From Dehalococcoidia bacterium (GTDB lineage: Bacteria > Chloroflexota > Dehalococcoidia > Bin125): a stretch of 64,000 nt of DNA. The stretch lies in the NCBI GenBank assembly GCA_965261715.1, contig OZ253471.1, forward strand, positions 2,621,422 through 2,685,421, read 5' to 3'. The notes under the pieces are model-generated. The model did not search any database and was not told the DNA's origin. It worked only from the letters and a program-made list of their open reading frames with translations. Below, in pieces: positions 50,063-59,186 of the stretch. Position numbers and translations under genes: made by a program. Numbering within the stretch: the stretch's first letter is position 1; each line of letters starts with the position of its first letter.

Positions 50063-51209
50063 GAGCGATCATAGGCGTATTGGTTCGAGTTGCTGAGGGA
50101 GCGCGTGATGCATCGCAATATGGGACAGCGGTCGTTGGCGGAGGCCTGGTTGCCGGAGCGACTGGGGAGCAATCGCCGCCTGGAGGGCGTCAACGAGGTG
50201 GTCGACTGGAGCTGTTTTGAGCGCTTGTTGGCCGAGATTCACTCGGCCCGCACGGGTCGCCCCAGCTATCCGCCGTTGCTGATGTGCAAGGTCCTGCTGC
50301 TGCAGCAGTGGTACAACCTGAGCGATGTCGAGCTGGAGGAGGCGTTGGCCGACCGGCTCTCGTTCCGCCGCTGCGTCGGTCTGGGTCTGGAGGACCCGAC
50401 GCCGGACCACTCGACGATGAGCCGTTTCCGCGAGACGCTGGTCGAGCGCGGTCTGGGCCAGGCGCTGCTGGCCGAGTTCGAGCGCCAGTTGGACGAGCGC
50501 GGCCTGTTGCTCAAGCAGGGCACGCTGCTGGACGCGAGTGTGGTCGAGGCGCAGGTGCGGCGGCCGCCGCACGCGGCCGGCCGGGGGGCGCGGCACGCGC
50601 GCGACCCGGAGGCGAGCTGGACGGCGACCGGGACCCGGCGCGGCCGGCGCTCGTGGTTCGGCTACAAGATTCACTGCGGGGTGGATCTGGGCAGCGGCTT
50701 CGTGCGGCGCGCCTTCCTAACCCCGGCCAACATCAATGAAAGCGAGGTGGCGGACACACTGATCTGCGCTGACGAGCGTGCGGTCTACGCGGACAAGGCG
50801 TATGACTCGAAGCGGCGCCGTCAGCGGCTGCGCGGGCGTGGGGTCAAGGACCGGATCAAGCATCGGGCGAACAAGTGGCATCCGCAGCTGCCGCACTGGC
50901 AGGAGCGGCGCAATCAGCTGATCGAACCGCGGCGCAGCGCCGTGGAGCGGCTCTTCGGCACGCTCAAGCGCAGTTACGGCTACCGGCGCGTGCGCTGTCG
51001 CGGCGTGGCCCGCAACGAACTGGAGCTGTGCGTCAAAGTGCTCGCCTACAACCTGCGCAAGGCGGACCAGTTGAGCGCCGCGGCCGCCTGAAGTCGAAGC
51101 GACAAGCGGCCGGCCGCGGCAGGCCGGCCGCGGCAGACCGGCCACGACCGCCCCCACCCGGCGACCGACGCGACCGGCGCGCAAAGTAGACCAAGCAAAT
51201 CACTCGCTC
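50063..51209 (+). mobile_element. IS5-family insertion sequence (~1.15 kb) with imperfect terminal inverted repeats
   Basis: left end gagcgatcataggcgtattgg versus right end (reverse complement) gagcgagtgatttgcttgg; a single transposase gene inside; boundaries approximate. Confidence 0.55.
50090..51091 (+). CDS. IS5-family DDE transposase
   Basis: LLMCKVLLLQQWYNLSDVELEEALADRLSFRRCVGL closely parallels the IS5 N-terminal region; DDE_Tnp_1-type C-terminal part; 333 aa. Confidence 0.85.
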   Translation: MLRERVMHRNMGQRSLAEAWLPERLGSNRRLEGVNEVVDWSCFERLLAEIHSARTGRPSYPPLLMCKVLLLQQWYNLSDVELEEALADRLSFRRCVGLGLEDPTPDHSTMSRFRETLVERGLGQALLAEFERQLDERGLLLKQGTLLDASVVEAQVRRPPHAAGRGARHARDPEASWTATGTRRGRRSWFGYKIHCGVDLGSGFVRRAFLTPANINESEVADTLICADERAVYADKAYDSKRRRQRLRGRGVKDRIKHRANKWHPQLPHWQERRNQLIEPRRSAVERLFGTLKRSYGYRRVRCRGVARNELELCVKVLAYNLRKADQLSAAAA

Positions 51210-54437: not shown

Positions 54438-54578
54438 AGGTTGGGTCTCCTTGGTTGAGATTCGTCAGTTGGTACGGAGGCTAGGTTAGACGCGGACTAC
54501 GCACGCCGTCGTCGGACGGGGTCGAGGCGCTCCCCAGTCCCCGCCACCGTGCGGGGACCAGCCCCCTTACCTCCTCAC

Positions 54579-54929
54579 CTATTGAATCGTCTGGATCGAG
54601 TAATCCATCTGCCGACGCTTGCACCAGCGTTGGGCAGCCTCCCGCTTTCGCTGAACCGAGTCCGAGTCAATCTGGTTGGAACCCTTAACCTCGATCAGCT
54701 CCACGCCTCCGTGGTTGTACTCCACCAGGAAATCCGGCCGATAGTTGTGACGCTTGCCCTTCGGATCGATCCAGGGGATCACGATGCCGTGCTTCTTCGT
54801 CCACTTGCGAACGATGTGATCAGCCTCCAGGCGCTCCATCATCTTGCGTTCTAGGCCGCTGTCGTAGACCTCGAAGTTGTAGGCGCTCTTGGTTGGATCC
54901 ATGAAGTTCCCGCGCTCAATCGTCGGCAT
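54579..54929 (-). CDS. small PD-(D/E)xK nuclease, VRR-NUC-like, last gene of the R-M-like operon
   Basis: 116-aa ORF; RPDFLVEYNHGGVELIEVKG (PD ... ExK) followed by ...QRKREAAQRW; start overlaps the helicase stop by 14 nt. Confidence 0.55.
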   Translation of the reverse strand: MPTIERGNFMDPTKSAYNFEVYDSGLERKMMERLEADHIVRKWTKKHGIVIPWIDPKGKRHNYRPDFLVEYNHGGVELIEVKGSNQIDSDSVQRKREAAQRWCKRRQMDYSIQTIQ

Positions 54930-56922
54930 ATTCGATCATCCCTCCTACGACATCGCCCCGTTGGACCAGGAATCGCTCCAAATCTCCCAGCGACCGAAAG
55001 GTTCGCCGAAGATCGTCCTCGGCCGCAAAGGCCACCGATTCTTCCGCCAGGAATCGCTGTTCCACGTGACGCAGCGCCGCGCTGTAGACCCAGCGCTGGT
55101 CGATCAACGAATAGCCGTGCCGAGTCGTCGCCTCAGCGGAGATCGTCTTCACCCGTTCCCGGATGCTCTCAGCCAGGTCATCGCGCGACAACTCGCCCAC
55201 CTTTAGCTCAGTGACGCCGTCCGGTCCGCTCAGGTGCTTCGTCCAGCCTCCGGCGCTCAATTCCTGGCCAGTAACCTCGGAAATCGTCTGGTCCGTGATC
55301 TCGACGAATTCGGAACTGTATTCCAGATCCCCGAGTACATTGCGCCACTCCCGGCTTGGCTCATCCGATGCTGGAACCACGACGGGTTCGAAATCGCCCG
55401 TGTCGTCGGTCGGCTCGGGAATCTGAATGATCAAATCCGTGCTGACGACCTCTTGTCGCGGCTTGGGTTCGGGCAACTCCTTCAGAGCATCGAATTCCTG
55501 TTCGACCCCAACGTTCTTCTCAATCTTGGCCTGCAACAGATCCCACAGCCAGTCGTGCTCGAGCTTAGGATGATCAACCACTGCGCAGATCTGTGGTTCT
55601 TCGTCGGTGATGTCTGGTCGGCGCACCCGCCGAAGGCCGCGCCCGATGATCTGCGGGCCGTAGACACGGCTGCCCATCTTGCGTAGTGGCAGGATCACCG
55701 CGACTTCTGGCACGTCCCAGCCTTCGCGGAGCATGGCCACCGACACGACCGCGTCGTACTTGTTCTGCCTGGCGATCTCCGCCGCCTCTTTGCGAGCCGA
55801 GTCTTCTTCATCCTCGGTCACCAGCAGGGTGCGCAGGTTGAATTGACCCTTGAGCATCGCCTGCGCTTTCTTCGCATCGGCTTTGCAGACCGCGACAACG
55901 AACAAGATCGGTCGATAGCGTCCGTTTGCGTGCAACTTTGCTTCCTTGAGCCGGTTGCAAGCGATCTCAATCTGCTGCGACATCGGCTTGGTGTCGGTGA
56001 CCCACTGCGTCGATGTCAGTCCCTTCCGGTCGACTTCGTCCCAGTCGATCTCCTCGACACGGCGCTGCTCGCCGCTGTTGGCGTCGGTGTAGGTCAACTC
56101 AACGACATCGATGCTGGGCTGGTAGACGACGGGTGTCGCAATCACGTGATCGTTCAGCGCTGCAGGAATGTCGTACTCGAAGATCATCTTGCTGTCGATC
56201 TGCTGTTCGTCGGCGCGGTCCGGCGTTGCGGTCGTATCGAGCCGGTACTTCATCGCGCCGTGTTCGGCCAGCGTTTCCAGTGTGCGATCGTATTCGGCCG
56301 CCGGAGTGTTGTGGGCCTCGTCGTTGAAGATCGCAAACGGGGTCTGATTCATCGCGAGGAACGCGGCCAGGTTGCGCTTGCCGGTCTTGCTGTTCTGGTA
56401 GAACTGGTGAATGTTGGCGAGGACCACATTCGAGCCAAACAGATCGCTGGCTGTGCTCTTTGAATCGCCACCTAATGTCGTCAGGGCGAAGTCGCCCGCC
56501 GAGACGACGACGTCGGGCGGAATCAGTTCGCGGTCGACAAAAACCTTGCCCTGCTGAAAATCGTCCTCAAGCCGATCGCGGACGATCAAGTTGGGACAGA
56601 GGATCAGGAAGCGCTGGACATCGTGGGCCAGCCGCAGCCAGACCATCGTCGCCGCGATCAACGCTGTCTTGCCGCCGCCCGTGACGATGTTGACCAACAA
56701 CCCGTCGGACCAGAACGACCGCTTCAGCACCTCGCGCGTGTAGACGACCCGAAGCAACGCGTCCCACTGATGCGGCCACAGCCCACCCGGCCTTGGGCGC
56801 CGCTCGTCCTCCGGGTCGGCGAGGAAGCGCAGGTACTCAACCGTCTCCGGTTCGGCGAGGGGGTAGCCGGACTCGACCCACTCGCGAAACTTATCCTCAT
56901 GCGGCAGGAACTCGTTGAGCAC
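54916..56922 (-). CDS. SF2 helicase of the ResIII (Type III restriction Res-subunit) family, lacking its own endonuclease domain
   Basis: motifs I TGGGKT, Ia LILCPN, II FNDEAHN (DEAH), III TATP, V LREGWDVP, VI QIIGRGLRR; no PD-(D/E)xK in the C-terminal 240 aa. Confidence 0.75.
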   Translation of the reverse strand: MLNEFLPHEDKFREWVESGYPLAEPETVEYLRFLADPEDERRPRPGGLWPHQWDALLRVVYTREVLKRSFWSDGLLVNIVTGGGKTALIAATMVWLRLAHDVQRFLILCPNLIVRDRLEDDFQQGKVFVDRELIPPDVVVSAGDFALTTLGGDSKSTASDLFGSNVVLANIHQFYQNSKTGKRNLAAFLAMNQTPFAIFNDEAHNTPAAEYDRTLETLAEHGAMKYRLDTTATPDRADEQQIDSKMIFEYDIPAALNDHVIATPVVYQPSIDVVELTYTDANSGEQRRVEEIDWDEVDRKGLTSTQWVTDTKPMSQQIEIACNRLKEAKLHANGRYRPILFVVAVCKADAKKAQAMLKGQFNLRTLLVTEDEEDSARKEAAEIARQNKYDAVVSVAMLREGWDVPEVAVILPLRKMGSRVYGPQIIGRGLRRVRRPDITDEEPQICAVVDHPKLEHDWLWDLLQAKIEKNVGVEQEFDALKELPEPKPRQEVVSTDLIIQIPEPTDDTGDFEPVVVPASDEPSREWRNVLGDLEYSSEFVEITDQTISEVTGQELSAGGWTKHLSGPDGVTELKVGELSRDDLAESIRERVKTISAEATTRHGYSLIDQRWVYSAALRHVEQRFLAEESVAFAAEDDLRRTFRSLGDLERFLVQRGDVVGGMIEYADD

Positions 56923-56927
56923 AGCGC

Positions 56928-58757
56928 CTACTCCACCTTGACGACGATGGAGTCCATACCCTCGCCGCCCTTGTCGTCCTGGACCTTACAAGCGACGGTG
57001 AACGTCCCCCTGTGCGGGAAGGTGTGCTGTGCCTCCAACGTTGGACCAGCGTTCTTGCCCTTCTTCTTGCCAAACCAGGTGTCGGGCTCTGCGTGGAAGA
57101 CACCGTCGCGATGGTTGAAGTCCCACTGCACATTGATCAGCTTGGCGCCGGCATTGAAGACCTGAGAACCGCCTGCGCTGAAGTTGTAGGTGGCGCCACG
57201 CACCCGCTGGTGTGCAATCTCGACGAGCGGCGGCTGGACGAAGGTGAGGAACTCCGAGTAGTCGCCCCTCTCAGTGGACTGGCCGCTGATATGACTCCGG
57301 AATTCGGGCGAGTCCAGCGCCACCTGGTTGAGCCGCACCAGGCCGATCTCAAGTCCGTCCCGGTTGCGCAACAGCTCGGCTGCCTCCCGTGCGTCTTGGC
57401 GGAATCCCCAGGCGAGCATCGTGCCGTCGCGAAGGCCCTCATCTCCCTTGTACCGGTCCAGCCTGGCGATTGCCTGGGCAAACGCGTTCACATCCTGCGC
57501 CGTTGCTCGCTCCCGGCGCTTCGGCGATCCAACCCAGACCGGGATTCGCGCGCCCGACCCCTTGTACCCGTGAATGCCAGGGTCTTCAGAGCGAATTCGC
57601 GCGTCGTAGCAATGCAACACGAATTGGCGAAAGTCATCGGCGGGCATTTGCGAGAGCTTGTCCGCTTCGTAGACGCCCCAGTGTTCGATCGTGAAATCAG
57701 ATAGGGGTTGGTCGCCGAACTCGCGCGTCGTGGCATCGTTCTTCAGGCGCTCGGCAGTTACGGCCACAGCGACACGCGATTGATCAATTGAGATCCAACT
57801 GCGTCCGAATCTCTGAGCCACAACCCCTGTCCCGCCTCCGCCGGAGAATGCGTCAAGTACCACGTCACCGGGATTGCTGGACGCAGTAACGATGCGTTGT
57901 AAGAGGGCTTCAGGCTTCTGTGTCGGAAACCCAATGCGCTCCTTAGCGATGGGGGCGATAATGCCGATATCCCAGACATCCGACATCGGCGCACCGGGGG
58001 TCTCCTTGTCAGTCTGGCTAGGCTTGCGCCTTCCAGAAGAGAAATCTGCGACTTGTTGCTTGGTTCCCCAAGTTTCTACCGTTGACTGCGCAAGACCTTC
58101 AAACTGTTGATTGAATCGATCCAATGGTCCAGGCCTTTTGCCATAAAGGAGCACGGCATCATGCATCTTTTGAAAGCGGCGTTGCTTTGAAGGCCACCTC
58201 CGATATCGCCAAACGATCTCGTTCTGGAAGTTCTCGTAACCGAAAATCTTGTCCATTTCTACCTTGATGTAATGGCTCGCATGCCAGTCGCAATGGACGT
58301 AGATAGAACCTGTCGGCTTAAGCAAACGCTTCATCTCGTACAAGCGAGCGTTGAGCCAAACCAGATAGCCGTCCAGACCGCCCTCCCAGATGTCTGAGAA
58401 TGAGCGCTCCTCGTTCTGGTCGCCCCAGATGACGTTGTAGTTGCGGTTCGAGAAGAAGGGCGGGTCAATGTAGATCAGGTCGACCGATTCTGAGGGCAAT
58501 TGTCGCATCACGTGGAGGTTGTCGCCCCAGATCAAGCGGTTGGGTTCGAGGTCGGGCGCGCCGAAGGAGACACGGTCAACGATCTGCGTCGGCAGGTTGA
58601 TCACCGGATAGTGATTGCGGAATCCGGGATTCTTCGGGTCCCAGCCCATGGGTGGCCGCTCTACGGGGATGTTGCCGAAGCGGGCCGGTGCCCGGAAGAG
58701 CTTCTCCTGGTCGGGGAGTTCGACCTGCGCTTCGCTGTCGATGTAGTCAGTTGTCAT
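56928..58757 (-). CDS. beta-class N6-adenine/N4-cytosine DNA methyltransferase (Type III Mod-like) with ~280-aa C-terminal extension
   Basis: NRLIWGDNLHVMRQL...VDLIYIDPPF (motif IV DPPF) precedes motif I FPTQKP...VLDAFSGGGGTG; start at MTTDYID supported by GGAG 9 nt upstream; the table ORF starts 38 codons further upstream. Confidence 0.75.
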   Translation of the reverse strand: MTTDYIDSEAQVELPDQEKLFRAPARFGNIPVERPPMGWDPKNPGFRNHYPVINLPTQIVDRVSFGAPDLEPNRLIWGDNLHVMRQLPSESVDLIYIDPPFFSNRNYNVIWGDQNEERSFSDIWEGGLDGYLVWLNARLYEMKRLLKPTGSIYVHCDWHASHYIKVEMDKIFGYENFQNEIVWRYRRWPSKQRRFQKMHDAVLLYGKRPGPLDRFNQQFEGLAQSTVETWGTKQQVADFSSGRRKPSQTDKETPGAPMSDVWDIGIIAPIAKERIGFPTQKPEALLQRIVTASSNPGDVVLDAFSGGGGTGVVAQRFGRSWISIDQSRVAVAVTAERLKNDATTREFGDQPLSDFTIEHWGVYEADKLSQMPADDFRQFVLHCYDARIRSEDPGIHGYKGSGARIPVWVGSPKRRERATAQDVNAFAQAIARLDRYKGDEGLRDGTMLAWGFRQDAREAAELLRNRDGLEIGLVRLNQVALDSPEFRSHISGQSTERGDYSEFLTFVQPPLVEIAHQRVRGATYNFSAGGSQVFNAGAKLINVQWDFNHRDGVFHAEPDTWFGKKKGKNAGPTLEAQHTFPHRGTFTVACKVQDDKGGEGMDSIVVKVE

Positions 58758-59186
58758 CGGTGGAATCTCCAGTAGTGCAGTCGGATGATACCGATTTGTA
58801 TGGCTTACAGAATAGGTGCGGTTATCTTGAGCGAACAGCGCGCAGCCCTCGCCGACCTCCGCCAGGCCCACCAGTCTCCGCTACGATGAACCCAGAACAA
58901 GTGAGCTATGAGGCTCGGGAGGTCCCGTTTTTTCTCCCAGCGCCCCAGAAAAAAGTTCACCCTGAAACCTGAAAGCCGACACGAAACCCTGCAACACACA
59001 GGGAATCTGCAATCGAAAGGGACGAAACACCCTGAAAAAACCTGAAAAACCTGAAGCCCCATCCGCTCAAGCGCCCACGCGGCGGCAGGTCGGTCGGGAA
59101 TGCCGCAGGATTCCGCCGTGTCTGGTCCAGGTCGCCGGGACTACCCTGCACCGGTACGAGCATGTGCCAAGCAGCGAGACTAAATC

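Follow-up and report, generated by a model that had tools for sequence, protein, structure and literature searches.

A probable Type III-like restriction-modification operon with a split Res protein in a Dehalococcoidia bacterium

In canonical Type III restriction-modification, Res is a helicase with a C-terminal PD-(D/E)xK endonuclease in one polypeptide. A 64,000-nucleotide stretch of a Dehalococcoidia bacterium genome (GenBank assembly GCA_965261715.1, contig OZ253471.1, positions 2,621,422 to 2,685,421; this whole stretch is called the window below) raises the question of whether the two activities of Res can also be supplied by two separate genes. According to the list of open reading frames (ORFs) of the window, three co-directional minus-strand ORFs fill positions 54579-58871. 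They encode a DNA methyltransferase (Mod), a superfamily 2 (SF2) helicase of the ResIII type that lacks a nuclease (gene res-H) and a stand-alone PD-(D/E)xK nuclease of 116 amino acids (aa; gene res-N). An earlier note, made by a model from the DNA letters and their ORFs, had described three tightly linked genes here, and they were present as claimed, together with every motif that it listed in the three proteins. Judged from sequence comparison, and with a probability of about 75%, the operon is a complete Type III-like restriction-modification system in which Res is encoded as two polypeptides. The analysis also points to a real and widespread split-Res variant of Type III restriction-modification in which the split is conserved across phyla. 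A split Res of this architecture was not described in the full-text literature searched.

Separate genes for helicase and nuclease

On the minus strand, which carries the whole operon, the longest ORF of mod (56928..58871) has 647 aa from a GTG at 58871. The Mod homologues begin near MTTDY (aa 39), which makes the ATG at 58757 the likely start; the gene placed by this homologue alignment (56928..58757) encodes a beta-class N6/N4 DNA methyltransferase of 609 aa. The mod stop (56928-56930) is separated from the helicase GTG at 56922 by 5 nt, so that the distance of 6 nt given earlier is right as a difference of positions. The helicase gene res-H (54916..56922, 668 aa) ends in a TGA and overlaps the ATG of res-N (54579..54929, 116 aa) by exactly the 14 nt that had been claimed (54916..54929, read from the sequence), and the two ORFs lie in frames one base apart. 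An AGGAGG Shine-Dalgarno-like sequence, also read from the sequence, was found at 54941..54946, 11 nt 5' of the nuclease ATG, within the codons that specify the conserved GG of GGMIEY in the helicase. Two stop codons in the nuclease frame stand shortly 5' of the same ATG.

The helicase carried the motifs TGGGKT (aa 81-86), DEAH (201-204), TATP (231-234) and QIIGRGLRR (424-432), and Pfam assigned it to ResIII (PF04851, 1.3e-14) plus Helicase_C. Its RecA-like core covers about aa 50-433, and no nuclease family of Pfam matched in the C-terminal region (434-668), in agreement with the earlier description of a helicase without a nuclease there. The AlphaFold model of this protein (predicted local distance difference test, pLDDT, 69) contained two RecA-like domains followed by a stretch of poor order and, at 580-665, a helical bundle predicted with confidence.

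The PD...ExK core that had been read in the 116-aa protein was borne out as RPDF (aa 64-67) and IEVKG (79-83), with E20 ahead of them, and the catalytic residues (E20, D66, E80, K82) were invariant in 38 homologues. The label "VRR-NUC-like" did not hold, since VRR_NUC (PF08774) matched with E = 0.018 and 15.5 bits, below the gathering score of 23.8; the superfamily is the same and the family is another. Better matches were the TnsA N-terminal domain (PF08722, 1.6e-13), Phage_endo_I (PF05367, 3.8e-6) and RE_endonuc (PF19778, 6e-5), the last of which also registered on a fused Type III Res relative. From these matches the protein is better described as a TnsA-N / phage endonuclease I / Type III Res endonuclease-like nuclease. 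A homologue search returned 163 proteins, and almost all of the 120 listed were 113-121 aa long. When the nuclease profile was searched against 1.8 billion representatives, 3547 hits were obtained, and most of the best matches were again small stand-alone proteins.

Other contexts of the nuclease domain were also seen. It often stands at the C-terminus of proteins of 230-335 aa with unknown N-terminal regions (P0395, P0401, P0406 and others), and in P0389 (462 aa) it is fused to a MinD/ParA-like ATPase, so that the domain is also used outside Res proteins. In two related loci, which come from Desulfonema and Syntrophales metagenome-assembled genomes (MAGs), two tandem nuclease paralogues were found 3' of the helicase gene (L074:2953-3812 and L082:7142-8004). 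The E, PD and ExK residues were intact in both copies, and the second paralogue had a C-terminal tail of about 60 aa ending in a hydrophobic, transmembrane-like segment. These tandem paralogues hint at a multimeric nuclease.

Conservation of the split was analysed in related genomes. More than 120 clusters came out of the helicase search, with identities between 99% and 53%, and those of full length were all 666-681 aa. When one genome per species was scanned, at least 591 loci were obtained; the best 80 of them were analysed, and together with loci fetched earlier they gave 84 cases in which both genes were visible. In 84/84 loci the nuclease was its own ORF with a conserved ATG, in a frame other than that of the helicase, and G-rich or Shine-Dalgarno-like sequence preceded the ATG in most of them. 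The junctions differed from locus to locus: the genes overlapped by 14 nt in 37 loci, by 11 nt in 24, by 8 nt in 3, by 4 nt in 4 and by 1 nt in 1, while a gap of 1 nt separated them in 7. The overlaps of 14, 11 and 8 nt share one relative frame (64 loci), and those of 4 and 1 nt (five loci) have a different one. Given this variety, with both alternative frames and gaps, a sequencing indel is excluded, programmed frameshifting becomes less likely, and separate initiation that is coupled to helicase termination is favoured. Five loci fetched via individual homologues contained the same three genes in differing genomic neighbourhoods. The earlier note had suggested checking whether relatives encode the two proteins as one fused ORF, and fusion was found in distant relatives, at about 25% identity. 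The split is real and ancient.

Both halves were colinear with fused Res models. In the PADLOC model REase_III PDLC03648 (871 positions), positions 131-356 matched the helicase and positions 737-826 the nuclease, and the NCBIfam model NF046055 (BPTD_3080 family restriction endonuclease, 970 positions) matched them at 574-619 and 848-940, with 62 and 47 bits, which do not reach its curated cut-off of 800. Since both models match the two ORFs colinearly, the ORFs correspond to two halves of a Res-type protein, which supports the claim of a Type III-like variant with the nuclease encoded in trans. The nuclease-profile search also returned fused relatives, P0456 (906 aa) and P0486 (825 aa), in which the nuclease domain is C-terminal and the N-terminal parts align with the helicase core at 24% identity. 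They are members of PDLC03648 (3e-158 and 6e-73), and for P0456 hhalign gave a probability of 98.9% for the helicase core (over aa 75-433) and 98.6% for the nuclease. When the nuclease was compared with plasmids by tblastn, most matches fell within large ORFs whose annotation reads helicase, "putative type III restriction-modification enzyme" or "restriction endonuclease subunit R". Fusions of this kind are Rosetta-stone evidence that nuclease and helicase work together physically.

The methyltransferase and its C-terminal region

The Pfam family N6_N4_Mtase (PF01555) matched Mod over aa 130-370 with 5e-45. Motif IV, DPPF (58455..58466, aa 136-139), is N-terminal to the S-adenosylmethionine-binding motif I, FSGGGGTG (57825..57848, aa 342-349, encoded without a homopolymer run), and motif X, PTQKP, lies at aa 316-320. 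The order DPPF, PTQKP, FSGGGGTG is that of the beta class, and thus the earlier assignment from DPPF ahead of FxGxG was confirmed. Characterised Type III Mods that make N4-methylcytosine (m4C) carry DPPY/F (PMC8259958), and for this reason DPPF cannot distinguish N6-methyladenine from m4C.

Between motifs VIII and X, a segment of aa 219-298 (57978..58217) was hypervariable. In 58 intact Mods the majority-residue agreement was 0.23-0.49 in this segment versus 0.83-0.91 in the flanking catalytic core, and the distance from NEIVW to PTQKP ranged from 73 to 155 aa. By alignment, the variable segment sits at the target-recognition-domain position of beta-class enzymes; in EcoP15I Mod this domain has 122 aa (PMC4490356). 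With such variability at the target-recognition position, Mod behaves like a restriction-modification enzyme. Specificity that diversifies around a constant core is usual in restriction-modification. Among the PADLOC models, MTase_III PDLC03633 matched Mod with 2.9e-43 over profile positions 78-420 of 616, and EcoP15I Mod matched it with E = 5e-8 over the N-lobe.

The C-terminal region of about 270 residues was conserved among the homologues, and therefore it is not a specificity domain. The earlier note had called this region unusually long and proposed determining its structure. The length is not unusual, as Mod has 609 aa versus 644 in EcoP15I Mod and the PDLC03633 model has 616 positions. 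An AlphaFold model of the region (pLDDT 76) contained two domains and was compared with solved structures. The first is an alpha/beta domain with a PD-(D/E)xK restriction-endonuclease fold (57288..57668, aa about 402-528) that resembles the cleavage modules of FokI and BspD6I. It is without the catalytic D and (D/E)xK, has H, W and G at the catalytic positions and is probably catalytically dead, so an active second nuclease in Mod was ruled out. The second is a PKD/Ig-like beta-sandwich (56931..57227, aa 549-647), for which weak Pfam PKD matches were also obtained. The region thus modelled as a degenerate nuclease fold plus a PKD-like beta-sandwich.

In EcoP15I Mod (644 aa), a globular alpha/beta C-terminal domain (539-644) makes the main contacts with Res (PMC4490356), and the start of the region after the methyltransferase part was homologous to that of an Aminobacter Type III Mod, which accompanies a fused Res. 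The tail of Mod is a normal Type III Mod tail plus an added Ig-like domain, and we infer that it may serve as a helicase-binding platform.

A search with the C-terminal region of Mod returned only proteins of 162-465 aa. The idea that this region is frequently a separate gene was dropped, as full-length Mods of 528-756 aa were present in 57 loci. The short proteins that were examined derive from frame-broken mod genes, and the others, on very short contigs, were probably cut at contig ends; full-length Mods were probably missing from this search through candidate retrieval. G/C homopolymers of 8-10 nt were found in 5/66 related loci (L005:5657, L006:5932, L008:4074, L011:4285 and L071:4090) and only in mod genes, with no run of 8 nt or more in the helicase and nuclease genes of the same five loci. 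Each was at or beside the Mod frame break, and three were in the Gly-rich motif I. They could represent phase variation or homopolymer errors of long-read MAG assemblies. Phase-variable mod genes occur in known Type III systems. The operon of the window, including its mod gene, contained no homopolymer of 6 nt or more; since the catalytic residues are also present, the operon looks intact and is apparently functional.

Proposed mechanism and alternative explanations

We infer a restriction-modification function for the operon, which might proceed as follows. A Mod dimer would recognise a short site via its variable segment and methylate host DNA for self-protection. The helicase subunit would bind Mod, probably at the conserved alpha/beta domain, in the position of the Res-contacting domain of EcoP15I, and its ATP hydrolysis may act as the switch to long-range movement on unmethylated foreign DNA. 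The 116-aa nuclease, whose translation would be coupled to the 3' end of the helicase gene, would attach non-covalently where the fused enzymes have a flexible tether after a helical spacer. Candidate docking positions for it are the helical bundle at the C-terminus of the helicase (aa 580-665, with the conserved GGMIEY at its end) and the degenerate nuclease fold of Mod (aa 402-528). The complex would then consist of Mod2, one helicase subunit and the non-covalently bound nuclease. Where complexes meet, nuclease subunits assembled at a site-bound complex would cut foreign DNA that is unmethylated. Canonical Type III cleavage depends on ATP and on two unmethylated asymmetric sites in inverse orientation, and only one strand is methylated. 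Two converging canonical complexes each give one nuclease domain, with each domain cutting a single strand (PMC6158743).

Several results weigh against reading the operon as a Type III system. Mod scored better on the Type II beta-methyltransferase model PDLC03339 (1.6e-66) than on the Type III Mod models, and CcrM, its closest solved structure, also scored higher than those models. The helicase model is only of moderate quality (pLDDT 69), and a Foldseek comparison of it with the PDB returned generic SF2 proteins (XPB first, then DEAD-box, Snf2 and SauUSI) with template-modelling (TM) scores of about 0.28 and without EcoP15I Res in the top 50; since this similarity was merely generic SF2, Foldseek was dropped for assigning the helicase to a family. 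In direct comparison, EcoP15I Res matched the helicase at motif VI alone (E = 0.009), and PDLC03648 matched it with 4e-10 over about a quarter of the model.

The alternative that survives best, though we consider it unlikely, is a different helicase-nuclease-methyltransferase defence, in which the nuclease is dimeric or pairs with the nuclease fold of Mod and follows cleavage rules unlike two-site collision, or which is modification-dependent or abortive. The conserved FokI/BspD6I-like fold in Mod, the two loci with tandem nuclease paralogues whose catalytic residues are intact, the remoteness of the helicase from canonical Res and its best PADLOC match, nominally PbeA (1.9e-10), would all fit such a system. 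However, the fold in Mod lacks the catalytic residues, and the start of the Mod C-terminal region also occurs in the Mod of a fused-Res relative, which means that it is not an adaptation to the split. Furthermore, the typed relatives of both halves are all Type III, and no DISARM, BREX, Dnd or Pbe components were adjacent in the window and the loci checked.

A more far-reaching proposal, which we regard as rather doubtful, is that split-Res systems form a mechanistically distinct class of ATP-dependent restriction. The nuclease would then act as a free dimer, as a heterodimer where two paralogues are present, or docked on the dead nuclease fold of Mod in a FokI/BspD6I-like manner. If this were true, one Mod-helicase complex would be able to cut both strands without collision with a second site-bound enzyme, and the dosage of the nuclease would be set separately by translational coupling.

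Returning to two polypeptides that together replace Res, we considered whether programmed ribosomal frameshifting at the 14-nt overlap makes a fused helicase-nuclease that is in effect a normal Res. The relative frame shared by the 14-, 11- and 8-nt overlaps of 64 loci and the conservation of the overlap region would permit this, but seven loci have the nuclease ATG one nt past the helicase stop, and the five loci with overlaps of 4 or 1 nt use another frame. The two in-frame stops shortly 5' of the ATG in the window, the conserved ATG itself with its usual G-rich or Shine-Dalgarno-like sequence, and the aligned junctions, in which no shared slippery heptamer was evident, make frameshifting very improbable.

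Equally hard to sustain is a DNA-repair or transposition module, either an XPB-Bax1-like pair or one with a TnsA-related nuclease, to which the methyltransferase gene is merely adjacent. It would account for the XPB helicases, including XPB-Bax1 complexes, at the top of the Foldseek results, and for the TnsA N-terminal domain as the best Pfam family of the nuclease. The Foldseek matches, however, are generic for SF2 as noted, and the nuclease scored 31.9 bits on the TnsA family NF033179, whose cut-off is 110. Neither the TnsA C-terminal domain (in the Pfam search of the nuclease) nor genes for TnsB, TnsC or TnsD (in the operon and the loci checked) were found. In addition, Mod was encoded 5' on the same strand in 57/60 loci with enough upstream sequence, with 0-16 nt between mod and the helicase gene in most relatives, and hypervariability of the kind seen where Mod would recognise its target is characteristic of restriction-modification.

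Finally, the earlier note had allowed that the 116-aa ORF might be the frame-shifted C-terminus of an ordinary fused Res, caused by an indel or recent mutation near 54916-54929, and although the colinearity of the halves with fused models and the overlap in frames one base apart would suit this, it has a negligible chance, since the same split in unrelated assemblies and phyla (84/84) with a conserved ATG and several junction geometries, the helicase length kept down to 53% identity and the two stops just 5' of the ATG exclude it.

Distribution and relation to known systems

The species-representative scan found the hosts mostly in Chloroflexota (Dehalococcoidia, SAR202 and Tepidiformaceae). 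Others belonged to Planctomycetota, Verrucomicrobiota, Armatimonadota, Bacteroidota, Proteobacteria, Nitrospirota, Patescibacteria, Thermoplasmata and Woesearchaeota. The module is patchy across these phyla and adjoins transposases, toxin-antitoxin pairs and other defence genes. Transposase genes of the DUF772/DDE_Tnp_1 type flank the split-Res systems in L004 (2663-3610) and L005 (9417-11808), and in the window a 333-aa transposase-like ORF (50090-51091, plus strand) lies 3.5 kb from the operon. The flanking transposase genes in L004 and L005 suggest a link of split-Res systems with mobile DNA. Close homologues of the split system were absent from the plasmid and phage collections searched, and the plasmid-borne pairs of a helicase and a small ORF in Leptospira (L090) and Pseudomonas (L092) were rejected as split systems because hhalign to the nuclease gave a probability of less than 1%.

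About 12 relatives carry cargo between mod and the helicase gene (L004, L006, L009, L025, L031, L045, L049, L068, L082, L083 and L085). Judged from the sequence, this cargo appears to include toxin-antitoxin pairs of nucleotidyltransferase/HepT-like and DUF433/DUF5615-like type, a protein with an HD domain and a small coiled-coil protein. For L006 a SocA_Panacea protein is recorded, and in L082 Pfam identified a Schlafen/AlbA_2 protein and an SMC-like ATPase. Insertion at this one junction seems to be tolerated by the three-gene core. In L005, the split-Res system has a large gene (1-2668) about 2.4 kb away on the opposite strand, which gave MmeI-type hits for helicase-like, methyltransferase and target-recognition domains, and the two together look like a small defence island. 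Two other loci are decayed. At L012:4648-5001 the Mod methyltransferase region breaks off after its first 117 residues and continues without interruption as helicase from residue 85, a sign of an internal deletion, and at L020:3041-3973 there is no mod within 4 kb 5' and a tyrosine recombinase gene adjoins the helicase gene.

Around the operon of the window, scans for Rfam families, tRNAs, promoters and terminators of the region gave nothing relevant, and the promoter scan found no sigma-70-like promoter on the operon strand. A GC-rich hairpin read directly from the sequence, GGTCCCCGC ... GCGGGGACT (54536..54559, minus strand), lies about 20 nt past the nuclease stop and has no T-run; the terminator scan did not flag it, and it is a possible operon end. 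Two copies of CACCCTGAAA, spaced by 70 nt, and three of AAACCTGAAA/G lie within 58958-59056, in the non-coding stretch of about 430 nt 5' of the likely mod start. These repeats could be operator or promoter elements. The lower GC content that had been described for the operon is there but is small (0.596 versus 0.644 and 0.608 for the two flanks and 0.623 for the whole window).

The source names of the three proteins are generic ("DEAD/DEAH box helicase family protein", "TnsA endonuclease N-terminal domain-containing protein" and "DNA methyltransferase"), the PADLOC defence-candidate models do not cover them, and the PDLC03648 match to the helicase is weak and covers about a quarter of the model. 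Because of this, in at least 591 species-representative genomes a restriction system goes unnamed by such annotation. Most carriers are uncultured Chloroflexota, Planctomycetota, Verrucomicrobiota, Bacteroidota, Patescibacteria and archaea. Censuses of defence systems are affected, and the system would account for "orphan" methylation motifs in the carrier lineages. As motor and nuclease are already apart in nature, recruitment and activation of the nuclease could be studied with separable subunits, which is hard in EcoP15I. The parts and the likely logic are familiar, so that the system refines a known class and opens no new one.

Among the closest known systems is the Type III group of PDLC03648 and PDLC03633-03636, which includes relatives of BPTD_3080 and probably the m4C systems of Murray et al. 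2021 (PMC8259958). Both this group and the window operon have the order mod then res, a beta-class Mod with DPPY/F and a variable segment, a homologous SF2 core, a TnsA/EndoI-like nuclease and the same start of the Mod region that follows the methyltransferase part. In that group, however, the nuclease is the C-terminal domain of a Res of 825-912 aa, whereas here it is its own 116-aa protein, and identity in the helicase core is only about 24-26%. Some of its members also have an extra ATPase or SF2 gene 5' of mod, which the window operon does not. On an Aminobacter plasmid (NZ_AP017989, L089), for example, an SMC-like ATPase gene is followed by genes for a 705-aa Mod (7e-117 on PDLC03633) and an 895-aa helicase with a fused nuclease, and a Salmonella IncFIB plasmid (L091) has an SNF2 gene together with genes for a 562-aa Type III Mod and a 912-aa Res (8e-191 on PDLC03648). 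The nuclease domains of these fused plasmid relatives gave hhalign probabilities of 96.6% and 88.6%. The Salmonella layout appears to resemble that of m4C Type III systems in which mod is preceded by an additional SF2 gene (PMC8259958).

Of the features of Type III systems, the operon has a beta-class Mod with an inserted variable segment, the ATPase motifs of SF2 and mod directly 5' of res; the nuclease inside the Res polypeptide is replaced by the separate 116-aa ORF. With EcoP15I and EcoP1I (PDB 4ZCF; PMC4490356) it shares the order of Mod, namely an N-terminal region, a methyltransferase lobe, the target-recognition segment, a second methyltransferase lobe and a C-terminal globular domain. 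As in EcoP15I, the parts of Res are RecA1, RecA2, a helical C-terminal spacer and the nuclease, and Mod is of similar length (609 here versus 644 aa). In EcoP15I Res the endonuclease domain past the helical spacer is flexibly tethered and disordered in the crystal (PMC4490356), and thus the split falls at the canonical flexible tether. In contrast to these enzymes, the nuclease here is supplied in trans, the Mod C-terminus is about 140 residues longer, including the PKD-like beta-sandwich, and sequence similarity is marginal. Heterodimeric Type IIS enzymes such as R.BspD6I (a large nickase plus a small subunit) and the FokI cleavage domain have no helicase, are ATP-independent and show no sequence similarity, and the corresponding domain of Mod here is without catalytic residues. 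TnsA of Tn7-like transposons and T7 endonuclease I belong by sequence to the same PD-(D/E)xK subfamily as the nuclease, but here this nuclease is part of a methyltransferase-helicase operon that is without TnsB, TnsC, TnsD and the TnsA C-terminal domain.

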